This document shows positions 1,883 through 45,768 of a stretch of DNA of 64,000 nucleotides, piece by piece (position 1 is the first letter of the stretch; each line of letters opens with the position of its first letter). Source of the stretch: an uncultured Methanosarcinales archaeon (GTDB taxonomy: Archaea > Nanobdellota > Nanobdellia > Woesearchaeales > CAZOXR01); assembly GCA_964566535.1 (NCBI GenBank), contig CAZMIO010000001.1:183751-247750 (forward strand), in the 5' to 3' direction. Made by a program: the position numbers and the translations under genes. The notes under the pieces are model-generated. The model ran no database searches. It was not told where the DNA came from and saw only the letters and a program-made list of their open reading frames with translations.

Positions 1883-4266
1883 GGAAAGGGTATTTGATTT
1901 TGGTTCTGTTTTTGGTTATTAGTAGTTATCTTGTTATTGGCCTTGAGGGGAGTATTGCTCCGGGGGATGGTGGTGAGGTGCCTTCTGGGCCTAGTGATCA
2001 TGATTGGGATGGGGATGGTGTTTTGAATGATGATGATGTTTTTCCTCGGAATCCTAATGAATGGGCTGATGTTGATTTTGATGGGTTTGGGGATAATTGG
2101 GATGCTAAGTATTTAGAGGTTGGGAATAATGATGGGGCTGTGCAGAATGATGATTGGGATGGTGATGGTCTGACGAATATACGTGAGTTTGAGATAGGGA
2201 GTGATCCGAATAGTGTTGTTGTTGGTGGAAGTGGTGATGGTTCTTCAGGTGAGAGTGCTGAAACAACAACTCCTTCTCCAGTGAGTGAGTATAGGGAAAC
2301 TCCTGAAACTTCATGTGGCTGTCCCGATTTAGATGGTGATGGTGAAGTTACAATTTCTGATATGGTTATGGCTGCCGTTGATTTTGGGGAAGGTTATATT
2401 GGAGATTTGGTTTGTGTTGCAACTAGGTTTGGGGGAGAGGTTGAGTGTGGAGAACAAGTAGAGGTTGGTGATGGACAAGCTAGTGAAGTTGTTGATATAG
2501 ATGAAGCGTATCGTGATTTAAGAAGGGGATGGGAAATAGAATCTGGAGATGAGGTTCTTGAAATTAATCTTGAGGAGTATTCATTATCAGAGTTATTTAA
2601 CTCCCTTGGTGTCTCTGAGAGTGCAGTAGTTGAGGTAGGACCAGGGATAGACCCAGTTACTGTAGATATTAAAAAGTTTACAGCTTGGTTTTATGATTTG
2701 GGTATTAGATATAGAATAGATATGGTGCTGGAAATTTTAACATCAGTTGATAGACCTGGAATTGCACCGAGAGGTGTTCACGCAAATATATATGAATATG
2801 AGAATGAATATGGTATTATTGGTGAAGGCCAAATCTCATTAATATCTAAAAATGAAAATAAATACTATAGAGATTCCTTGGAAGGTTATCTAAACCAAAG
2901 AGGAAAATCTGTTAGTACTATTTTGAATGAACTTAAAGGGGATCTAAATAGGCCAAAAGATGAATTTAAACATAGGCAGTATATTGGTGTTGAGGAGGTA
3001 GAAGATTCCCATTTGTTTAGTATATCTGATTTAAGAAGTGGTAGTTTAACATTTATGAGAGGGTCTGCTTTAATAGAAGTAAATTCAGAAGAAGATGTTG
3101 AAGATTTTCCATTAGATGGAGAGATTTTTGAATATCAATTTGATGAAGAAACTGGAATATCAACAGTTACTAGGCATACTAAATATTTAGATTACAGTGG
3201 TGAAGGAGGGATTCAATATGCAGATACTGTAATTTGGGAGATAGGGTTGGAAGGAGAGTTAATCTCTAGAGTTGGTGGAAGAGACCCAATAGCTATACAA
3301 CAAGAATACCAAGAAGGTATTTTAGCAATAACTGCTGATGTTGTTGTTGGTGATGTAGTTGAACATGTACCAATTAAAGGAGGTCTTGAAAAAATAACTG
3401 GAAGAGGTTTTGTTATATCCTCTGGATCCGGTTCTCAAGATGAAACTGACCCACTATCTGAAGATGTATCAGATGGTGAAGACTCATTAGATAGGGTAAA
3501 TGAAAAAGAAGAGAAAGAAGGGAGAGAGGTTGTCACAAATGTAGAGGTTCTTCCAATAGAATCAAAACCAAATGTTGATGATGTAGGTGATGTTAAATTT
3601 CTATATGAGGTCAAGTACTCAACCAAGGATATATTATTACTTCAAATGGATGGGAGACTAGCAGATATTATTGACAATCATGTTCAAGGTATGTTTGAAG
3701 CTGGATATGCAGACAGCCTATATCTAGGTGATTTGTTTCATGGACATTTTTATTCTCTAGATCCACAATTTCATCTAAACTTCCCAGATCATCCAATATC
3801 CCTAGAGGACTGGACAGACATTTATTTGGATGGGGATATGGGGATTGTGTATCACACAAGAGAGGGCGAATATAATGATGTACCTTACACAGGGCCTGCT
3901 AGGAGTCTATTGGGTACATCTGATGGAGAGGTGCGTCCAATGGTACCTCAAAATGATGATGCAAGATTTGAAAATTATGGGACTGTATTTGGGGATGATC
4001 CTTTTTTAACATATGAATCTAATGTTGGAGGCGTGTACATCGGAGATCCTGAAGAACATGAGGGAGTAGGACATACTCAACCAGTTGATGCAACCTTTGA
4101 AGGTACTCATTCTGAGTATGGGATGATACTCTCTGATGATCCTTACAAATACGGCTTGTTCACAGTATTTATGGATGAAAATGGTAGGTACGATTTACCT
4201 AGTGGGGAAAGATATGATATTTTTTATTGGTTAGAAGAAAGGGATGCTGAAGATGATGATAAATAA
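1879..4266 (+). CDS. Large secreted protein with Ca-binding thrombospondin-type-3/dockerin-like Asp repeats
   Basis: N-terminal signal/TM (LILVLFLVISSYLVIG); repeated DWDGDG(V/L)(L/T)N and DLDGDGEVTISDM (dockerin-like) motifs; overlaps the upstream gene by 4 bp (GTGA), suggesting an operon. Confidence 0.55.
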   Translation: MRKGYLILVLFLVISSYLVIGLEGSIAPGDGGEVPSGPSDHDWDGDGVLNDDDVFPRNPNEWADVDFDGFGDNWDAKYLEVGNNDGAVQNDDWDGDGLTNIREFEIGSDPNSVVVGGSGDGSSGESAETTTPSPVSEYRETPETSCGCPDLDGDGEVTISDMVMAAVDFGEGYIGDLVCVATRFGGEVECGEQVEVGDGQASEVVDIDEAYRDLRRGWEIESGDEVLEINLEEYSLSELFNSLGVSESAVVEVGPGIDPVTVDIKKFTAWFYDLGIRYRIDMVLEILTSVDRPGIAPRGVHANIYEYENEYGIIGEGQISLISKNENKYYRDSLEGYLNQRGKSVSTILNELKGDLNRPKDEFKHRQYIGVEEVEDSHLFSISDLRSGSLTFMRGSALIEVNSEEDVEDFPLDGEIFEYQFDEETGISTVTRHTKYLDYSGEGGIQYADTVIWEIGLEGELISRVGGRDPIAIQQEYQEGILAITADVVVGDVVEHVPIKGGLEKITGRGFVISSGSGSQDETDPLSEDVSDGEDSLDRVNEKEEKEGREVVTNVEVLPIESKPNVDDVGDVKFLYEVKYSTKDILLLQMDGRLADIIDNHVQGMFEAGYADSLYLGDLFHGHFYSLDPQFHLNFPDHPISLEDWTDIYLDGDMGIVYHTREGEYNDVPYTGPARSLLGTSDGEVRPMVPQNDDARFENYGTVFGDDPFLTYESNVGGVYIGDPEEHEGVGHTQPVDATFEGTHSEYGMILSDDPYKYGLFTVFMDENGRYDLPSGERYDIFYWLEERDAEDDDK

Positions 4267-6079: not shown

Positions 6080-7762
6080 CTACTTGTGTGCGAACCAAAA
6101 AACTAATTTATTTCCTAACTTTTGATCTAGTCTTACGAAGCCGAATCTTTCGAACTGGATTACTTGACCTTCTGATAAGTCTTTTAATCCTCTTTCTCCT
6201 AGGCCTTTCTTTATTTTGTTGTCTGGCATTATGACTTCTACGTTTACTAAGTCTTTTTCTTTTGGGAGCCAGTGGATGATTAGGTTGCCTTGCTCTTTGA
6301 ATTTGTTGTAGTCTAAGGAGTCGAAAGTGAACTCTTTGCCTTCTTTCTTGAAGTTTAGGCAGTCCATCAGTCTGATTAGTTTGTTGTCTTTGATATTTTT
6401 ATGGTCTTCTTTTGTTAAATAGAATTTATCTGTTGTACTAAATTTTCTTCCTTTTTTTCTGTTGTTTGGGTGCAGGTCTAATTCTACGTTTTGCATTGGT
6501 GCGTTGCTTACTTTTATTTCAACTGGTGATTCTATGAAGAAGTATCTATGTGACTTAGAGTCAATTGCGTCTTTGTTGAATGCGTTGATTGCTTTGAAGA
6601 ATTCTTCTCCTGTTGTTGTTTTGTCGGTTTGGGAGATTCCAACGTCTAATGCATACTTGATGAATGCGTCCGGATGGTAGCCCCTACGCTTTAATGCTTC
6701 TAGGAAAGGTAGACGGATATCATCCCATCCTGTGTATGTTCCGTCTTCAATTAACGGTCTTGTTTTTGAGCAGCTGACTCTTAAGTCTTTGAAATTAATT
6801 CTACCGATGTAGAGATGTTCTGGCATCTTCCAACCCAAGTAATCGTAAAGGTATTTTTGACGCTTTTCGTTGTCCATGTGTTCTTTTGCCCTTATTGCAT
6901 GAGTGATTCCTAATTCGTGATCGTCGATTGTAACTGCGAAGTTCATCAGTGGCCAGACTCGGTATTTTGTTTTTTGTTTTGGATGAGAATTTAGGTTTAT
7001 TCTTAGTGCTGGCCAGTCCCTCATTGCAGGATTTTTATGAGTAATGTCTGTTTTTATTCTGACTACTGCGTCTCCTTCTTTGAATGTTGTTAGCATTTTT
7101 TCCCATCTTTCTACGTTGGCTTGCTTTCTAATGTGTCTGCATGGGCATGGGATGGACTTTAACATTGATTCTCGGAAGTCTTCTGCTTTGCAAGTACAAA
7201 CATAAGCATGTTCTTTTTTGATTAACTCTTCTGCGTATTTGTAGTATAGTTTTAATCTGTCTGATTGGATGATGATGTCGTTTACGTTGTTTTTTGTAAT
7301 CCATTCTGCGTCTATGGGGATTAATTTGTAGGCTTTTTCGTAGATGTTTTCAGGATTTGTGTCTGCGATTCGGATTATTAGTTTTCCTTTGTGTTTTCTA
7401 GCTAGCTCTGAGTTTAGGCTTAATGTGAATGCATGGCCTATGTGTAGGGGTCCTGACGGCGATGGTTCGAATCTCATTACAACTTTTTTTTCTTTGAAAG
7501 TTGGCAGTTCTTTCTTTTTTTCAACTTTCTTTTGTTTTTTTAGTAAGTCTGGTGCTAAGTCTTTTAGTTTTTCTTTTTGTTTGTCTAATGGTAGTGAGTT
7601 TACTTCTTTTACAATCTGCATTATGTCTTTGTTTACTTCTTTTGCTTTTGATTTTAGGTCTGGATTCTCACTTAGAACTTTTCCTATGATTGCGCCTGGA
7701 TTTGCTTTACCGTTGAACTTTACAGCGTTTTGTAGAGCGTATTTTAGGATTAATTGTTTCAT
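6080..7762 (-). CDS. gltX: Glutamyl-tRNA synthetase (archaeal GluRS/GlnRS-type class I)
   Basis: HIGH motif PSPSGPLHIGHA; length about 560 aa; class I GluRS-like sequence throughout. Confidence 0.8.
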   Translation of the reverse strand: MKQLILKYALQNAVKFNGKANPGAIIGKVLSENPDLKSKAKEVNKDIMQIVKEVNSLPLDKQKEKLKDLAPDLLKKQKKVEKKKELPTFKEKKVVMRFEPSPSGPLHIGHAFTLSLNSELARKHKGKLIIRIADTNPENIYEKAYKLIPIDAEWITKNNVNDIIIQSDRLKLYYKYAEELIKKEHAYVCTCKAEDFRESMLKSIPCPCRHIRKQANVERWEKMLTTFKEGDAVVRIKTDITHKNPAMRDWPALRINLNSHPKQKTKYRVWPLMNFAVTIDDHELGITHAIRAKEHMDNEKRQKYLYDYLGWKMPEHLYIGRINFKDLRVSCSKTRPLIEDGTYTGWDDIRLPFLEALKRRGYHPDAFIKYALDVGISQTDKTTTGEEFFKAINAFNKDAIDSKSHRYFFIESPVEIKVSNAPMQNVELDLHPNNRKKGRKFSTTDKFYLTKEDHKNIKDNKLIRLMDCLNFKKEGKEFTFDSLDYNKFKEQGNLIIHWLPKEKDLVNVEVIMPDNKIKKGLGERGLKDLSEGQVIQFERFGFVRLDQKLGNKLVFWFAHK

Positions 7763-7920: not shown

Positions 7921-8142
7921 ATGGGGAGAAAAGTTACTACAATTCCTAAGGCGCCTATGGCGAGAATTCTGATTAATTCTGGTGCTAGTAGAGTGTCTGC
8001 TGAAGGTGCAGATGTTTTTGTTGAAGTTATTACAAAGATAACTGAAGAGATTGCTGTTAAGGCTGTTGCGATTTCTAAGCATTCTGGCAGAAAGACTGTT
8101 CACGAAGATGATGTAAAGATTGCTGAAAAGCAGATATCATAA
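7921..8142 (+). CDS. Archaeal histone (HMf-like) with a short basic N-terminal extension
   Basis: IPKAPMARILINSGASRVSAEGA...AISKHSGRKTVHEDDVKIA matches HMfB-type histones; an extra MGRKVTT precedes the fold. Confidence 0.85.
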   Translation: MGRKVTTIPKAPMARILINSGASRVSAEGADVFVEVITKITEEIAVKAVAISKHSGRKTVHEDDVKIAEKQIS

Positions 8143-8178
8143 AGATTTTTATACTATTTCTTGTTTGTTTAATTTTGT

Positions 8179-8270
8179 GGGCTGGTAGTTAAACCTGGTT
8201 ACAACGTCCGGCTGGCAGCCGGGTGGTCCGAGTTCAAATAAGATTAGCTTTGAAAGTCTCGGCCAGTCCA
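8179..8270 (+). tRNA. tRNA-Ala (anticodon GGC) with a roughly 18-nt non-canonical intron in the T-loop
   Basis: Acceptor GGGCUGG/CCAGUCC with the G3:U70 Ala identity pair; anticodon stem-loop UCCGG-CUGGCAG-CCGGG (U33, GGC, A37); T-stem CCGAG...CUCGG interrupted after TTCAAAT by AAGATTAGCTTTGAAAGT, whose TTTGAA can pair with exon TTCAAA (BHB-like). Confidence 0.65.
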
Positions 8271-8322
8271 TATTTATGTATATATAGAAACTCTTATAAA
8301 ATAGAAAGAGTTATTTCTTGCT

Positions 8323-9126
8323 ATGGCATACAAAATACTTTTTGTAACTGATTTGCATGGGAATAAGGAAGTTTATGAGCGATTAGTTGATTTTGCAAAC
8401 AAAGAGAAGGAGATTCAGGCGGTTGTTATTGGAGGGGATTTGTCTGCTGCTAGTAAAGGTGCTATGGAAGAGGGGGTAAGGATTGAGAAAGAGTTTCTAG
8501 TTGATTTTATGATTCCTGAGCTGAAGAAATGTTCTAAGGATATTTATTTGATGATGGGTAATGATGACTTTAAGGTAAATATGGAAGTTTTAGAGAAAGA
8601 ATCTAAGAAAGGAACTTTTAAGTTGATGCACAACAAAGTGAATAAACTTGGTAAGTGGAATATTGTAGGTTATAGTTTTGTTACGCAGATGCCTTTCTTA
8701 ATGAAAGATTGGGAGAAGATGGATGACTCTGATTCTAAAGCAATGACTGATGCTAAGCAGGAGATAAGGTCAGTTCCTAAGGAGAAAGGAACTATTAAAG
8801 AAGATATGGCTAAATTAAAGAAATTAAGTAATCCTAAGAAAACAATTTATGTTATGCATGCTCCGCCATTTGATACTTATTTAGATAGGATTTATGAGAA
8901 GAGGCATGTTGGGTCTAAGTCTATTAGAGAGTTTATTGAGAACGAGCAGCCATTCTTGACTTTGCATGGGCATATTCATGAGTCTGTAACAATGTCTGGT
9001 GAGTTTGCTGATAAGATTGGTTCGACAGTTTGTGCAAATCCAGGTAGTGAGTATCACGATGGTATATTGAATGCTGTTATAATTGATTTGGAGAATTTAG
9101 AAGATATGGAGCACGAGATGATTTAG
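8323..9126 (+). CDS. Calcineurin-like metallophosphoesterase
   Basis: Motifs DLHGN, GGDL, GNDD, HAPP, HGHIHE. Confidence 0.7.
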   Translation: MAYKILFVTDLHGNKEVYERLVDFANKEKEIQAVVIGGDLSAASKGAMEEGVRIEKEFLVDFMIPELKKCSKDIYLMMGNDDFKVNMEVLEKESKKGTFKLMHNKVNKLGKWNIVGYSFVTQMPFLMKDWEKMDDSDSKAMTDAKQEIRSVPKEKGTIKEDMAKLKKLSNPKKTIYVMHAPPFDTYLDRIYEKRHVGSKSIREFIENEQPFLTLHGHIHESVTMSGEFADKIGSTVCANPGSEYHDGILNAVIIDLENLEDMEHEMI

Positions 9127-11083: not shown

Positions 11084-11205
11084 GCGGGTGTAACTCAGCC
11101 TGGTTAGAGTGCTAGACTCATATTTTTGAGTGATGAGGCGAAAGCCGATGAAAAAACTTAAACCGGGTTATCTAGAAGTCGTGATTTCGAATATCGCCAC
11201 CCGCA
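11084..11205 (+). tRNA. Elongator tRNA-Met (anticodon CAU) with a roughly 47-nt intron at canonical position 37/38
   Basis: Acceptor GCGGGUG/CACCCGC (G1-C72, so not the initiator); D-arm ACUC-AGCCUGGUUA-GAGU; anticodon stem CUAGA/UCUAG with loop CUCAUA; T-arm GUGAU-UUCGAAU-AUCGC; the intron contains GUGAUGA...GGCGAAAGCC...CGAUGA. Confidence 0.7.
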
Positions 11206-12042
11206 CTATTTTTTCTCTAATCTTTTCTTTTTCTCAGAAGTAATTAGGTAGTTATCATTAGAAATAACACTTTTGCCTAATCTTTGTTCAATGTCTTTTC
11301 TAGTAGAACCTGCAACTTCTCCGCCATCTCTTGCATCTTCTTTTAGTTTTGGAAAAACTTGGGAATCTCTTTCTTTTGTGAACCTTGTTGTAGTTGCTTC
11401 GCCCAGCATTGTTAATACTAATTCTATATCATCCATATGATCCCTTAAATTTTGGTTTTCTAGGCATTTATAATCTTTATACTCTTTTGGTGTTAAGTCA
11501 AATGTTGCCTTTGTTATCTCTGCTGTAAGGATTGAGTATTCTTTATTGGTCTTTACTCCTCTTTTATCCCATTCGTCTGTTAATTCGTCCCTTATTGCTA
11601 TTCCCCTAATCCTCTTTTCAATCCAATTATCAGAATAACCTTTGGATTTATAGAGCTCTTTCATTCGTTTTTGAGCTAATTCTGGGTCTTCTATTTCCTG
11701 AACTCTTTCGTATCCTACTTTTGCTAACCATCTTTTGAATGGTTCTGCTTTTTTTGAGGGGATGGATTGGATTATTCGAAACATGGATTTAGTGTGGGCA
11801 CAATCTGTTAAGTATCTCTTTCCATCTGCTGAGAGTAATTTCAGTTGTCGACAAAATGTCGATAACTCGGTTTCACTAGATTCGAACTCTCTTTTTTTCA
11901 AACGATACCAATAGTCTTTTGCATCGACACTATCTGTTAATGCTTCCACAATGTCAACCACTGAGAAATACCATTGTTCATTGTAATATATTCTCCTAAT
12001 GTTCTTTCCCTGGAATACAACTAATGCCTTGTTTTGGTCCAT
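11206..12042 (-). CDS. Bro-N domain protein (phage/mobile-element-associated family), paralog 1
   Basis: N-terminal MDQNKALVVFQGKNIRRIYYNEQWYFSVVDIVEALT has the Bro-N pattern; 278 aa; paralog of 39588..40424. Confidence 0.55.
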   Translation of the reverse strand: MDQNKALVVFQGKNIRRIYYNEQWYFSVVDIVEALTDSVDAKDYWYRLKKREFESSETELSTFCRQLKLLSADGKRYLTDCAHTKSMFRIIQSIPSKKAEPFKRWLAKVGYERVQEIEDPELAQKRMKELYKSKGYSDNWIEKRIRGIAIRDELTDEWDKRGVKTNKEYSILTAEITKATFDLTPKEYKDYKCLENQNLRDHMDDIELVLTMLGEATTTRFTKERDSQVFPKLKEDARDGGEVAGSTRKDIEQRLGKSVISNDNYLITSEKKKRLEKK

Positions 12043-18928: not shown

Positions 18929-20104
18929 CTAATAGAATAACTCTTGATTCATCTTGAGTTGATTATTAACAACCGTAAATGGTCTTCTTAAAACAACTCT
19001 CAATTTATGTTTGTTTACCATTCTATTTAAGATTGTAGACATTATCCCATATCTCATTTTTAATTTGATCATTAATTCTCTTTTTGTAATAGGGGAATCA
19101 CACAATGAATATACTCTATTTTCAATACTTGTTGGATTATAGGGTGTACTGTAACACTCTATCATTTTTGATAGTTGGTTTTTCTTTATTTCAGAGTTAA
19201 AGCCAATCTTTTCTTTATAATCCTTTAATGAGTATACAATAAGGGTAAATTTTGAAGATCTTATTTTAGTCTTATATCTTATATTTAGATTATCTAAAAC
19301 CATTTGTACCCTTTTAATTCTCCTTACCCCTTTAATGCTCTGCCTTAAAATAATAGTACCATGTATATCTACATGTCCATCAGCATCAAAGAAACCTTTG
19401 GCATATTCTGATTGAACTTTCTTAGAAGCTCCACCTAAAAAATAATCTAACTTTTCTTCAATATTATTGAATAAATCATTTATTTTACTTCCTCCTATAT
19501 GTAGGATAACAAAACCTTCTTTTCTTTGGCGCTTAGAATAACTGATTATTCTTTCATTATTGAATGTCTCCTTAACTTTATCTACTAGGGCTGATTTTAT
19601 AGAATATGTATAAATTGACCATTTATTACTTGTTTTAATTAATTCATCAGTTATTTCTTTATATCTTAATAGCAAATCAATTTCTTTAGGTGAAGAACAC
19701 GCAGCAATTATTGGATTAGCTTTAGAACCATCTCCATCTCTATAACCAAAATACCAAGCTAACTTTTCATTTAGAACAAAACTAGAAGGTAATTCATAAT
19801 GTCCATTGTATCCTTGTGAATTGAAACTTATGATATTATTCCATATTTGTTCAATATTTAAATTTAGATAACTGAGGATTTTTAATAAATCTTTGAATGT
19901 AGGTTTAGTAGCTCCTCTTCGCCAGCAATTTATTGAATTCTTTTGATATCCTAACTCTTTTGCTAAATCTTTTGCAGATGTTCCTGCTTTTTGGATAGCT
20001 TCATTAAAGAGATTAGTTCTAAATTCTTTTTCCAAATTTAACCTAATATTATGAGGTAAAAAATCTTTTATGTGTATTTTTTGATAATGATTATTTGTAT
20101 TCAA
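18929..20104 (-). CDS. Free-standing double-motif LAGLIDADG homing-endonuclease-like protein with an N-terminal HTH (paralog A)
   Basis: HTH-like SAKDLAKELGYQKNSINCWRRG; LAGLIDADG motif 1 LAWYFGYRDGDGS and motif 2 AKGFFDADGHVD about 120 aa apart; acidic residues retained; possible C-terminal wHTH. Confidence 0.6.
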   Translation of the reverse strand: MNTNNHYQKIHIKDFLPHNIRLNLEKEFRTNLFNEAIQKAGTSAKDLAKELGYQKNSINCWRRGATKPTFKDLLKILSYLNLNIEQIWNNIISFNSQGYNGHYELPSSFVLNEKLAWYFGYRDGDGSKANPIIAACSSPKEIDLLLRYKEITDELIKTSNKWSIYTYSIKSALVDKVKETFNNERIISYSKRQRKEGFVILHIGGSKINDLFNNIEEKLDYFLGGASKKVQSEYAKGFFDADGHVDIHGTIILRQSIKGVRRIKRVQMVLDNLNIRYKTKIRSSKFTLIVYSLKDYKEKIGFNSEIKKNQLSKMIECYSTPYNPTSIENRVYSLCDSPITKRELMIKLKMRYGIMSTILNRMVNKHKLRVVLRRPFTVVNNQLKMNQELFY

Positions 20105-20290: not shown

Positions 20291-21229
20291 TTAATAATTT
20301 AAGAATCTACTCTCGAAGTTGTCTTTCATTAATAATACCACCCTACTTTCCTTCTTGTCATCTACAATTTTAAAGTTGGTTAATGAAGATATTTTCTTAG
20401 CAAAGTCGATTATTTCACTATGTATTGGCATATTAGTTATTTCTAGCCTTTGTTTAGAGTGTCCTACCCAGACATAAGCTTTTGCTTCAATGAATTGTGG
20501 AGATGCTTGTTTTATTAATTCAGCGTACTTTTCTGGCTTAATTAGATTTACGTCTTTTGCTAATGTTAAGCGTAAAGTGTTTCTTTTGAATTTGTTCATT
20601 AGGTTTATTGATTCTAATATTTTTTCCCATTGGTTTTTTACTAAGGGTGAGCAGATGCGTTCGTAAGTTTGCTCGTCAGGTGCTGGGAGAGTTATGTATA
20701 ACTGAGTTGGTTGTTGGTTGATTAATTGTTTTAACATTTCTGGGTTTGTTCCGTTTGTAACTAGGAAAGATGAGATTTTTCTATTTTTTAGTTCTTTGAT
20801 AAACTCTGGAAGTTTTGGATATAATGTTGGTTCTCCGCTTAGAGAGATTGCGAAGTGTAGTGGGTGTTGGGCTTCTGCATATTTTTCTCTGTCTGATTTA
20901 TCGGTTCCGCCAAAACCTTGAATGTATTTGACGTGTTCTTTTATGCAGTTGTCGATGATTTCGGATGGTTCGTCAACTGGCCCCGCCCATTTTGGTTGTG
21001 TAAACTCGATATCTCGCCAACACCAGTTACATCTATTTGAGCAGAATTGTAAAGCTGGAGTCATCTGGACGCATCTATGTGAGTTAATATTGTAGAAGGT
21101 TTTTTTGTAGCAGACGTCCTCGCACCTGATTGCTTTTTTTGTCCATAAGCATACCTTGATACTGCTATGATTACCAACTACCCTATACCCCTGTTTATAA
21201 AGATCTTTGACCTTCTCTTTTGTTAACAT
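20291..21229 (-). CDS. taw1: tRNA 4-demethylwyosine synthase Taw1/TYW1 (radical SAM)
   Basis: HRCVQMTP...CSNRCNWCWR (CX3CX2C); AISLSGEPTLYP; PTQLYITLPA; VGHS; ESRVVLL; all collinear with archaeal Taw1. Confidence 0.8.
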   Translation of the reverse strand: MLTKEKVKDLYKQGYRVVGNHSSIKVCLWTKKAIRCEDVCYKKTFYNINSHRCVQMTPALQFCSNRCNWCWRDIEFTQPKWAGPVDEPSEIIDNCIKEHVKYIQGFGGTDKSDREKYAEAQHPLHFAISLSGEPTLYPKLPEFIKELKNRKISSFLVTNGTNPEMLKQLINQQPTQLYITLPAPDEQTYERICSPLVKNQWEKILESINLMNKFKRNTLRLTLAKDVNLIKPEKYAELIKQASPQFIEAKAYVWVGHSKQRLEITNMPIHSEIIDFAKKISSLTNFKIVDDKKESRVVLLMKDNFESRFLNY

Positions 21230-22494
21230 GAACTCACCTTTAGATTTTTTAATGTATTAAATATCTCAATATTCTCTTTTTTGAAACATTTTTTATAATG
21301 CCCGAGTCTATCCAATTCTTGAGTTATATCTCTGAAAGAATCGAAATTCTCTTTAAACCATCTTAAACCTTTTTCTGTTGGTAAATGTAAAAAAGGATCA
21401 GAACCCTGACCTGTTCCATCTCTTGATAATAATTTTTGTTTGACAAATTCGGCTGCTGTTGCACTAGCATTGGATGGATGTATCCTAAAACAGTTAGCAA
21501 ATCGATTTATTGTTAAATTAGGAAATAGTAAAAAACTTGAAAAATATAATATATCATGTTCCCTAATCCTGTTTCCTTTAATCAATCCTTCTACCTCTTC
21601 TTTTTTCTTATGCGAAGGTATAAACGTTAATATATTTTTACTAAAAATATTAAAATCAGATTCCCTATTTGACCGATTATAGCCAATACTTACAAAATTT
21701 ATATAAAATTTTGGATTTTTAAAATTTAAATCTTTGATTATGTTAAGGACCAGGTTGATCTCCTTTTGATCAGTCATCCCCCATTGTAGTTTATTGCTTC
21801 TTTTATCTGCTGTTCCTTCCGCTGAAAAAAATCCTGCTAAAAATCTAAATTTAAATTCTTTTGAGCTTTTCCTTAGAATAAAATCAAAATTTTCAAATAC
21901 CTTGGTTAAGATGGTAGATAAAGGTGTATTTGCTAATCTGATTATAGCTGTCAAACCATTTGCTCCTTCTGATAAGTTGTTTGTTTTGTTGGGCTTGAAT
22001 TTAATTTTATTAAGGCCTACTTTGATTAAATTTTCTTTTAAATCTTTAATTCTTGATTCTAAAACTAAATTTCCGTATTGGATTCTTATATCACATTTAT
22101 TTATATCTTGATTTAAGGATTTCAAATAATCTACAAAATATTTTATATTTTCTATATCATTATTTCCAAATCCAATATGTTTTATTATCTTACTTCTTTT
22201 ATCAATTGATGTCAGACCATCTCCAATCCATAAACCTAAAAAAACAGGGTCTAAAGTAAATTCTTTAGGTACTATATTTGAAAACTTATTTCCTTTTCCC
22301 TGTGACTCTATTTCAATGATATCTTCATTTTCTGAGATTATATTCCAAACATTCCCTCCTTGTTTTCTTTGTCTTTGTTTTTTTTGGTTTACTAATGATC
22401 TTATTATTCTTTCACTATTTATTATTGGGTATCCATTTGTAAAATTTAAGTTATTCTTAAAATCTTCAATTTGTAATTTTTGATTAGTTTTCAT
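21223..22494 (-). CDS. Free-standing double-motif LAGLIDADG homing-endonuclease-like protein with a C-terminal extension (paralog B)
   Basis: Motif 1 VFLGLWIGDGLTS and motif 2 FLAGFFSAEGTADK about 125 aa apart; its stop overlaps the taw1 start by 7 nt (co-transcribed). Confidence 0.55.
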   Translation of the reverse strand: MKTNQKLQIEDFKNNLNFTNGYPIINSERIIRSLVNQKKQRQRKQGGNVWNIISENEDIIEIESQGKGNKFSNIVPKEFTLDPVFLGLWIGDGLTSIDKRSKIIKHIGFGNNDIENIKYFVDYLKSLNQDINKCDIRIQYGNLVLESRIKDLKENLIKVGLNKIKFKPNKTNNLSEGANGLTAIIRLANTPLSTILTKVFENFDFILRKSSKEFKFRFLAGFFSAEGTADKRSNKLQWGMTDQKEINLVLNIIKDLNFKNPKFYINFVSIGYNRSNRESDFNIFSKNILTFIPSHKKKEEVEGLIKGNRIREHDILYFSSFLLFPNLTINRFANCFRIHPSNASATAAEFVKQKLLSRDGTGQGSDPFLHLPTEKGLRWFKENFDSFRDITQELDRLGHYKKCFKKENIEIFNTLKNLKVSSC

Positions 22495-39587: not shown

Positions 39588-40424
39588 TTAATTTTCAATT
39601 TCTTTTTTCTTTTTTTCAGTTAAGTGAAGATAATTTTCTTTTGAAGTTATGGATTTACCTGTCTTTTGCTCAATCTCCTTTCGTGTGTTTTTAGCTATCG
39701 TTCCTCCTTCAACAGCTGAGTGTTTACATTCACTAAATCCCTTGGAATCCTTTGAGACAGTGATATCAGTAGTTGCCTTTTCTCCAACCATTGTCAGTAT
39801 CAATTCCCAATCAGTCATATGGTCTCTTAGGTTTTGATTGTTGCGCTTTAAGCTTTTGAATTTCTTATATTCTTCAGTAGTCTTGTCAAATGTAGCTCTT
39901 GAAATCTCATTTGTGAGTATTGTGAATTCTTTTTGATTTTCTATATCTCTATTTTTCCATTCTTCAGTCAATTCCTGCCTTACTGCAATGCCCCTTAGCC
40001 TTTTATCAATCCAGTCTTTAGGGTAGCCTTTTAATTCATAGTATTCTTTTACTCTGTTTTGAGCTAACTCTGGGTTTTCTATCTCTTGGATTCTGTCATA
40101 ACCTACTTTTGCCAACCACCTTTTGAATGGTTCTGCTTTTGAAGACGGAATTGACTGAATTATACGAAATATGCCTTCTGTATTGGCACAATTCATGCTT
40201 TGAGATCCTCCAGAAGTAGGAATCGAAAGGGTATGTACAAATTGTACCCACCCTTTAGAAAGCTCTTCATCTCTTGTTCTCATTTTGCTAATATACTGCT
40301 TTGGGTCTTTGGAATCAGTAAGCACAAATACAATATCTTCTATTACAAACCACCACTCATCCTTAAACCAAGTTCTTCTAATATCTTTTCCTTGAAATAC
40401 AACTAATGCTTTGTTTTGGTCCAT
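39588..40424 (-). CDS. Bro-N domain protein, paralog 2
   Basis: MDQNKALVVFQGKDIRRTWFKDEWWFVIEDIVFVLT...RIIQSIPSSKAEPFKRWLAKVGYDRIQEIENPELAQ; the conserved stretches are near-identical to those of 11206..12042. Confidence 0.55.
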   Translation of the reverse strand: MDQNKALVVFQGKDIRRTWFKDEWWFVIEDIVFVLTDSKDPKQYISKMRTRDEELSKGWVQFVHTLSIPTSGGSQSMNCANTEGIFRIIQSIPSSKAEPFKRWLAKVGYDRIQEIENPELAQNRVKEYYELKGYPKDWIDKRLRGIAVRQELTEEWKNRDIENQKEFTILTNEISRATFDKTTEEYKKFKSLKRNNQNLRDHMTDWELILTMVGEKATTDITVSKDSKGFSECKHSAVEGGTIAKNTRKEIEQKTGKSITSKENYLHLTEKKKKEIEN

Positions 40425-43933: not shown

Positions 43934-43936
43934 AAA

Positions 43937-44056
43937 CGCGCCGAGGAAGATTCGAACTCCCGACCTATAGCTTAGGAGGCTATCGCTCTTTTTGGCTTCG
44001 CCAAAATCTTCTCGAACTTTGGGTTCTTCGAAGTATCCAAGCTGAGCTACCGGCGC
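43937..44056 (-). tRNA. tRNA-Arg (anticodon CCU) with a roughly 44-nt non-canonical intron in the D-loop
   Basis: Minus strand: GCGCCGG-UA-GCUC-AGCUUGGAUA-[CUUCGAAG...UUUUGGCGAAGCCAAAAA]-GAGC-G-AUAGC-CUCCUAA-GCUAU-AGGUC-GGGAG-UUCGAAU-CUUCC-UCGGCGC-G. Confidence 0.55.
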
Positions 44057-44112
44057 ATAGGAATAGGGTCTTTGGGAAGGTTTTTATAAGTTTTTGTTTT
44101 CATATTCTAAAT

Positions 44113-45680: not shown

Positions 45681-45768
45681 AGCCCCCGGGGAGAGTTGAA
45701 CTCCCGACCTGCTGATTGCTTGCTTTGTAGCTACAAGTCAGCCGCTATAGCCACTAAGCCACGGAGGC
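45681..45768 (-). tRNA. tRNA-Thr (anticodon UGU) with a roughly 15-nt intron at 37/38
   Basis: Minus strand: GCCUCCG-UG-GCUU...GCUGA-CUUGUA-[GCUACAAAGCAAGCA]-A-UCAGC-AGGUC-GGGAG-UUCAACU-CUCCC-CGGGGGC-U. Confidence 0.6.

Follow-up and report, generated by a model that had tools for sequence, protein, structure and literature searches.

Does the segment at 8179–8270 of the window (the whole stretch of 64,000 nt analysed here) encode a working alanine tRNA, when 25 nt lie between its T-stem strands CCGAG and CUCGG and a usual T-loop has 7? A first-pass annotation had read it as a tRNA-Ala(GGC) with an intron at a non-canonical position inside the T-loop, and our analysis bears this out. The (+) strand encodes a 92-nt pre-tRNA-Ala(GGC), and we consider it very probable that this is a functional gene of a marine Woesearchaeota-type (DPANN) archaeon, with a single 18-nt protein-spliced intron of the bulge-helix-bulge (BHB) type at tRNA position 59/60 (Table 1).

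The identity of the tRNA follows from the G3:U70 pair (G8181:U8267), the discriminator A73 (A8270) and the alanine anticodon GGC. The acceptor stem with G3:U70 and the anticodon loop CUGGCAG, with U33 and A37 on either side of GGC, can be read in the sequence just as the first-pass annotation had described them. U8 and A9 are present, the D-arm contains an A13·C22 mismatch, and CCA is not encoded at the 3' end. After removal of the 18-nt insert, ARAGORN called a 74-nt tRNA-Ala(GGC) with the T-loop UUCAAAU. Upstream of the gene, the element TTTTTATA is, by its sequence, likely an archaeal promoter, and a TTTATA-like element is found at a similar upstream distance in the orthologous loci L015, L007 and L012. 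In the organism, this tRNA may serve the GCC and GCU alanine codons.

Table 1 Features of the pre-tRNA-Ala(GGC) gene in the window
Feature	Position	Strand	Sequence, pairing or basis
TATA-box-like element	8146–8153	+	TTTTTATA; 26–33 nt 5' of tRNA position 1; sequence reading
5' exon, tRNA positions 1–59	8179–8238	+	Sequence reading, partial Rfam match, ARAGORN call on the spliced sequence, covariation
Acceptor, 5' strand	8179–8185	+	Stem GGGCUGG/CCAGUCC
D-arm	8188–8205	+	GUUA-AACCUGGUUA-CAAC
Anticodon arm	8207–8223	+	UCCGG-CUGGCAG-CCGGG
Anticodon	8214–8216	+	GGC
Variable region	8224–8227	+	4 nt
T-stem, 5' strand	8228–8232	+	CCGAG
T-loop, U54–A59	8233–8238	+	
Intron, position 59/60	8239–8256	+	UAAGAUUAGCUUUGAAAG, 18 nt; BHB parse, deletion and ARAGORN
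Helix h (T-stem, 5 bp)	8228–8232 / 8258–8262	+	CCGAG/CUCGG; BHB parse
Central helix, 5' strand (exon)	8233–8236	+	UUCA (U54 U55 C56 A57); pairs with UGAA at 8251–8254
5' bulge (A58, A59, first intron base)	8237–8239	+	AAU; predicted cut 8238/8239
Helix h' (intron hairpin, 3 bp)	8240–8242 / 8248–8250	+	AAG/CUU; folding, BHB parse
Loop of h'	8243–8247	+	AUUAG
Central helix, 3' strand (intron)	8251–8254	+	UGAA; folding, BHB parse
3' bulge	8255–8257	+	AGU; predicted cut 8256/8257
3' exon, tRNA positions 60–73	8257–8270	+	Sequence reading, ARAGORN call on the spliced sequence, covariation
U60	8257	+	
T-stem, 3' strand	8258–8262	+	CUCGG
Acceptor, 3' strand	8263–8269	+	
Discriminator A73	8270	+	

Standard searches passed over the gene. 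ARAGORN called zero tRNAs in the 64-kb window by default, and with its intron options it called just two other genes and nothing at 8179–8270 (settings tried: default, -i, -i0,120, -io and a lowered score). The extra calls obtained at the lowered score had introns of hundreds to thousands of nucleotides and were rejected as implausible; 8179–8270 was still absent from them. Rfam at the gathering score found the same two other tRNA genes in the window and none at 8179–8270. A relaxed Rfam search of 8100–8350 gave a partial tRNA match of 19.3 bits at 8179–8236, in which a false 3' end was forced; the additional snoRNA and sRNA matches that appeared at the relaxed E-value threshold were set aside as chance. 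The intron-aware ARAGORN search that the first-pass annotation had proposed thus does not call the intact gene, and calls tRNA-Ala(GGC) once about 18 nt are deleted. The gene would escape automatic annotation.

ARAGORN accepted 47 different T-arm deletions when these were enumerated, so that the intron boundaries could not be fixed in this way and the BHB rule was required. The BHB geometry runs, from 5' to 3', as h, a 4-nt central strand, a 3-nt bulge, h', a loop, h', a 4-nt central strand, a 3-nt bulge and h, and cleavage takes place after the second base of each bulge. Applied to 8179–8270, this rule left one strong solution only. It cuts after A59 (8238) and after G8256, and the intron is therefore UAAGAUUAGCUUUGAAAG. 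Of the earlier description, the T-loop insert of about 18 nt stands, whereas its boundaries, given as AAGAUUAGCUUUGAAAGU at 60/61, have to be replaced by those at 59/60. The mature sequence is the same in both registers, because a single U is kept either way. To check the cut rule, we used the canonical intron of the window (45681–45768): the rule placed it exactly at 37/38 and yielded tRNA-Thr(UGU).

Folding of the exon–intron junctions, which the first-pass annotation had recommended, indeed gave a BHB. The motif is not merely "BHB-like", as had been stated there: the junction folds as a strict 3-4-3 hBHBh' motif, with two 3-nt bulges on opposite strands, a 4-bp helix between them and flanking helices h and h'. 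Since the intron is able to form this full motif, it does not fall into the relaxed hBH/HBh' class. The pairing of exon TTCAAA with intron TTTGAA noticed earlier is confirmed as an exon–intron pairing, of which only the 4 bp UUCA/UGAA belong to the central BHB helix. When both bulges are cut after their second base, a canonical cloverleaf is restored, and the product aligns with the intron-less orthologue L012. In the 35-nt T-arm, the strict BHB fold has −6.3 kcal/mol and the minimum free energy (MFE) fold −7.5 kcal/mol, a difference of 1.2 kcal/mol. The MFE fold lengthens the central helix to 6 bp (UUCAAA/UUUGAA) and loses the 5' bulge, and the enzyme would therefore need to capture a slightly less stable BHB conformer. 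The h' helix of this intron is short, with only 3 bp.

To see how often such a motif arises by chance, we scanned both strands of the window for every 4/4 central helix with an h of at least 2 bp, spliced each candidate and submitted it to ARAGORN. Among about 64,000 BHB-like candidates, 8179–8270 was the sole new tRNA and showed the best motif (h 5 bp, h' 3 bp), apart from a weak tRNA-Lys(UUU) call at 43936–44057, which had an h of 2 bp, no h' and a further intron of 21 nt placed by ARAGORN. The other junction-spanning calls, tRNA-Met(CAU) and tRNA-Thr, had both been found by Rfam already. Four block-shuffled windows gave one weak match altogether (h 2 bp, h' 0 bp, 138-nt "intron").

Six independent metagenome assemblies (L001–L006) contain the 92-nt precursor with 100% identity. 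By following the synteny of the glutamyl-tRNA synthetase (GluRS), histone and tRNA genes, we assembled a series of orthologues (Table 2), and all their BHB-spliced sequences were called tRNA-Ala(GGC) by ARAGORN. Every orthologue that bears the 59/60 intron retains UUCA in the exon, UGAA in the intron and the AG|U bulge, and UGAAAG|U is found in 5/5 of the GluRS-syntenic ones, while the interiors of these introns differ in length and sequence. The series provides a modest, dated record of how introns came and went at three sites within a single tRNA gene. Beside the GluRS genes of L008–L011, L013, L014, L018 and L020, no tRNA was found in a single-BHB and ARAGORN scan, which genes with two non-canonical introns would escape.

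Table 2 tRNA-Ala(GGC) genes of the GluRS-syntenic series
Locus	GluRS identity	Intron at 59/60	Other introns or inserts
Window	100%	18 nt, UAAGAUUAGCUUUGAAAG	None
L015	94%	19 nt, UAAGUAUUUGCUUUGAAAG	82-nt D-loop intron, strict BHB, h' 8 bp
L016	73%	46 nt	None
L017	71%	26 nt	12-nt anticodon-loop intron, hBH type
L007	70%	29 nt	12-nt anticodon-loop intron, hBH type
L019	68%	None, T-loop uninterrupted	~15-nt D-loop insert
L012	50%	None	No intron at all; Rfam 58 bits

The tRNA-Ala(GGC) genes of L007 (~1644–1760 (−)) and L017 (1017–1129 (−)) have the anticodon-loop introns UUUUUACCGAAU and UUUUUACCAAAC, respectively, which form a central helix and a 3' bulge without h'. The mature anticodon loop predicted from the BHB rule is UUGGCUA, with U37. 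This loop is the same as the uninterrupted one of L019, which lends independent support to the cut rule. ARAGORN miscalls the L007 tRNA as Phe(GAA), and the L019 orthologue as tRNA-Pro(GGG). In L019 (999–1089 (−)), the T-loop is intact and the roughly 15 extra D-loop nucleotides contain a GGACAAT direct repeat; no clean BHB was found for this insert, and its splicing in L019 is tentative. In L012 (3427–3619 (−)), the last ~20 nt of the intron-less tRNA-Ala(GGC) (TCAAATCCCGGCCAGTCCA) are repeated about 100 nt downstream, which resembles the att-type duplication that an integrating element leaves behind.

For the covariation analysis, we aligned eight sequences, namely the seven spliced or intron-less members of the series and a tRNA-Ala(GGC) (L089) from the metagenome scan described below. 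The cloverleaf fitted 98.8% of the cells of this alignment, compared with 84% after shuffling and 30–50% in slid registers. Compensatory changes on both sides were present in 11 of the 21 pairs, a number reached by none of 500 shuffles. Covariation was strong in all four cloverleaf stems, including two T-stem pairs around the intron, and G3:U70 was invariant (8/8 sequences).

These data also bear on how the insert is removed. Splicing through a relaxed hBH conformer, or in the 60/61 register, would give the same mature tRNA with a different excised intron and a different enzyme specificity. The MFE fold has an hBH-like shape, consisting of the 6-bp helix, a loop of 10 nt and AGU bulged out on the 3' side; the products of the two registers are identical; and hBH-type introns are used in this lineage, as the anticodon-loop introns of L007 and L017 show. 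We nevertheless regard this route as improbable, as the 5' cut site would lie inside the helix of the 6-bp conformer, the strict fold costs just 1.2 kcal/mol, and the helix is limited to 4 bp in L017 and L007, whose introns have 26 and 29 nt, so that the conserved feature is the 3-4-3 geometry. Rejection by standard tRNA finders would also be expected of a pseudogene, that is, of a tRNA-Ala inactivated by an 18-nt T-loop insertion and no longer in use. This is very unlikely, since the insertion makes a perfect BHB, relatives carry four other inserts of different length and sequence at exactly the same site with the splice core kept, the stems are maintained by compensatory changes around an invariant G3:U70, and the sequence does not vary across the six assemblies. 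That the insert is retained in an unspliced tRNA-like molecule with an extended T-arm, an idea with nothing specific in its favour, can practically be dismissed, because the insert sequesters U54–A57, which are needed for the T-loop/D-loop interaction, and because the orthologous inserts range in length from 18 to 46 nt and share the BHB core alone, the signature of a splice signal and not of a functional arm.

For the preferred reading, a strict BHB intron at 59/60 of a functional tRNA-Ala(GGC), a splicing pathway can be outlined. Archaeal splicing endonuclease (EndA) recognises the BHB at any tRNA position and generates 2',3'-cyclic phosphate and 5'-OH ends; the exons are ligated by RtcB, and the excised intron may circularise. 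Going by this established knowledge of archaeal tRNA splicing, the gene would be transcribed from the TATA-type promoter about 30 nt upstream. In the precursor, U54–A57 of the T-loop would pair with the intron UGAA, giving a 4-bp helix between the T-stem (h, 5 bp) and the hairpin (h', 3 bp), with two 3-nt bulges beside it, a 5' one of A58-A59-U and a 3' one of A-G-U60. EndA would cut after the second base of each bulge and an RtcB-type ligase would join A59 to U60; the resulting tRNA would have 74 nt and the usual T-loop UUCAAAU, and CCA would be added to it post-transcriptionally. As the intron sequesters U54–A57, T-loop modification and the contacts between T-loop and D-loop would be possible only after splicing.

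The first-pass annotation had implied that such an intron needs an endonuclease of relaxed specificity. The strict 3-4-3 motif does not by itself require one, and the window intron alone therefore does not imply such an enzyme. The α4 and α'2 types of EndA require the 3-4-3 motif, and typical α4 EndA has been described as acting at the canonical position (PMC3239211); since the motif is strict, even these enzymes should in principle accept the window intron. In DPANN lineages such as Woesearchaeota, EndA is reported to be of an α4 type with an L3 insertion, and this type reportedly goes with more disrupted tRNA genes (PMC5829648). The hBH-type 12-nt introns of L007 and L017 hint at a broadened EndA specificity in this lineage. 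A phmmer search with M. jannaschii EndA (PDB 1A79) found no EndA when run on every six-frame ORF of the window, where the best match had E = 0.2, or on fetched loci totalling 789 kb, no endonuclease domain was detected by a Pfam scan of 17 window ORFs, and the 64-kb window contained no ligase gene.

Introns of this kind are already known, and the gene implies no new splicing mechanism and leaves the knowledge of that mechanism unchanged. Position 59/60 is a listed non-canonical site of archaeal tRNA introns (PMC4090602, PMC3239211). A close comparison is the pre-tRNA-Pro(GGG) of ARMAN-2 (Candidatus Micrarchaeum acidiphilum), whose T-loop is interrupted by strict hBHBh' introns, one at 53/54 and the other at 59/60 (Fujishima et al. 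2011, PMC3239211). It likewise combines a DPANN host with a strict hBHBh' T-loop intron at 59/60, but it has two adjacent T-loop introns and an ε2 EndA, whereas the window gene, a tRNA-Ala(GGC) of a marine Woesearchaeota-type archaeon, is interrupted by one intron only. The tRNA-Cys of ARMAN-2 contains a 13-nt hBH intron, also at 59/60, which was cut in vitro by the ε2 EndA (PMC3239211), the sole case with in vitro cleavage among the systems compared here. That intron is of the relaxed hBH type and needs a broad-specificity enzyme, in contrast to the strict 3-4-3 motif with h' in the window. Non-canonical BHB introns of Crenarchaeota/Thermoproteales and Nanoarchaeota occur at 20/21, 45/46, 53/54, 56/57, 59/60 and other positions (PMC4090602). 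They belong to the same protein-spliced class at transplantable BHB sites, several can occur per gene, and there is evidence of their gain, loss and transposition, with which the L015 and L112 introns described below may be compared. Their hosts have an (αβ)2 EndA with a Crenarchaea-specific loop, whereas the enzyme reported for Woesearchaeota is α4 with the L3 insertion (PMC5829648). With the canonical 37/38 intron, represented in the window by tRNA-Thr(UGU), the tRNA-Ala intron shares an identical BHB geometry and the predicted enzymology; the canonical intron lies in the anticodon loop and is found by standard tools, unlike the one in the T-loop.

New DPANN tRNA sets, that of one Woesearchaeota genome included, could not be completed, and undiscovered disrupted genes were predicted (PMC5829648). 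The window gene fits this prediction, and hidden split genes like it help to explain such "incomplete" sets. It adds a clade-conserved strict-BHB intron at 59/60 to a lineage said to carry an α4-type endonuclease with an L3 insertion.

The first-pass annotation had called T-loop introns rare, which proved overstated: the 59/60 type is not rare in environmental archaea. We scanned a metagenome collection with the pattern CGAGTTCAAA-N{11,41}-TGAAAGTCTCG, which matched at least 118 stretches, and ARAGORN called at least 69 of them as tRNAs once the insert at 59/60 was removed. Among the matches listed, this T-arm and intron architecture occurs in tRNAs with at least 21 called anticodons, an approximate number because ARAGORN anticodon calls can err when an anticodon-loop intron is present, as seen in the window. 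Also among the matches listed, 59 distinct introns stand behind the 69 calls, and 41 of these 59 introns lie in genes that have an ARAGORN-called anticodon-loop intron as well. With the introns of the window, L015, L017 and L007 added, the set comprises 63 distinct introns of 17–46 nt, of which 65% form an h' of at least 3 bp (22% when shuffled) and 49% an h' of at least 4 bp (8% when shuffled). About 30 matches from soil, with a 47-nt insert beginning GATAAAGAGG, were rejected as tRNAs; they read as an open reading frame (EFKDKEDLFMQSLQYYLESL) and thus look protein-coding.

Some introns of this group may have moved between sites. The tRNA-Ala(GGC) of L015 has its 82-nt D-loop intron at 569–650 (−), and the corresponding region of the window (8192–8205) lacks it; at 94% GluRS identity, this points to a recent gain or loss. 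A tRNA-Glu(UUC) gene in L112 (3664–3868 (+)) carries two introns, one of 45 nt in the anticodon loop and one of 84 nt in the T-loop at 59/60 (3771–3854). Over its first 27 nt, this T-loop intron matches the start of the L015 D-loop intron with 96% identity, and related introns therefore occupy different positions in the tRNA-Ala of one organism and the tRNA-Glu of another. These two observations, the 12-nt intron gained or lost within the series and the spread over at least 21 called anticodons are hints that BHB introns are actively mobile in the marine Woesearchaeota clade, with 59/60 as a hot spot; we treat this as a conjecture that is more probably wrong than right by a good distance. If it were true, these closely related, abundant genomes would provide presence/absence pairs for tRNA intron transposition, and they could serve to test whether introns shield the region from the T-arm to the 3' end, which serves integrases as an attachment site. 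In connection with intron mobility, the intron element AACTGGTTACGCTCGGTTTACACGCAA may also be named.

The surroundings of the gene are archaeal, with genes for a histone, an archaeal-type GluRS, EF-2 and Taw1, and the GC content of the window is 35%. The tRNA-Ala(GGC) gene begins 37 nt downstream of the archaeal histone gene (7921–8142; Pfam CBFD_NFYB_HMF) and is followed by a metallophosphoesterase gene from 8323; the GluRS gene (6080–7762) is divergently transcribed, its start being 417 nt from the tRNA gene. The GluRS is 100% identical to a protein labelled Candidatus Woesearchaeota archaeon (NCBI), and the labels of its relatives with 48–73% identity are Woesearchaeota or Nanoarchaeota, apart from two records that wrongly carry the name Methanosarcinales. 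Identical contigs are present in several marine assemblies, a TARA sample among them.

Two further tRNA genes are encoded in the window. The one at 45681–45768 (−) is tRNA-Thr(UGU); its intron of 15 nt lies at 37/38 and forms a strict BHB, in which h has 5 bp and h' 2 bp. ARAGORN with -i gave this gene as tRNA-Ala(UGC) with an intron at gene position 36, which we rejected on the basis of the BHB placement and of C3–G70 and U73 in the acceptor stem; these two features show that it is not an alanine tRNA. The other, at 11084–11206 (+), is a tRNA with the anticodon CAU (Met or Ile2) and a 47-nt anticodon-loop intron (11123–11169). No clean BHB was found for this intron, an A·C mismatch falling in the would-be central helix. 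Its sequence includes a UGAG that is the complement of the anticodon region; after this come UGAUGA, a GGC-GAAA-GCC hairpin and GAUGA, and this K-turn or box-C-like layout recurs in tRNA-Met introns of L039, L068 and L116.

Elsewhere in the window, LAGLIDADG-like ORFs (two, one of them also with HTH) flank a radical-SAM Taw1/TYW1-like gene of wyosine formation (18929–20104, 20291–21229 and 21223–22494 (−)), and the end of the 423-aa ORF beside Taw1 reaches 7 nt into the start of the Taw1 ORF. Two paralogous 278-aa proteins with a Bro-N domain are encoded at 11206–12042 (−) and 39588–40424 (−); the former adjoins the 3' end of the tRNA-Met gene and may mark the remnant of a mobile element.
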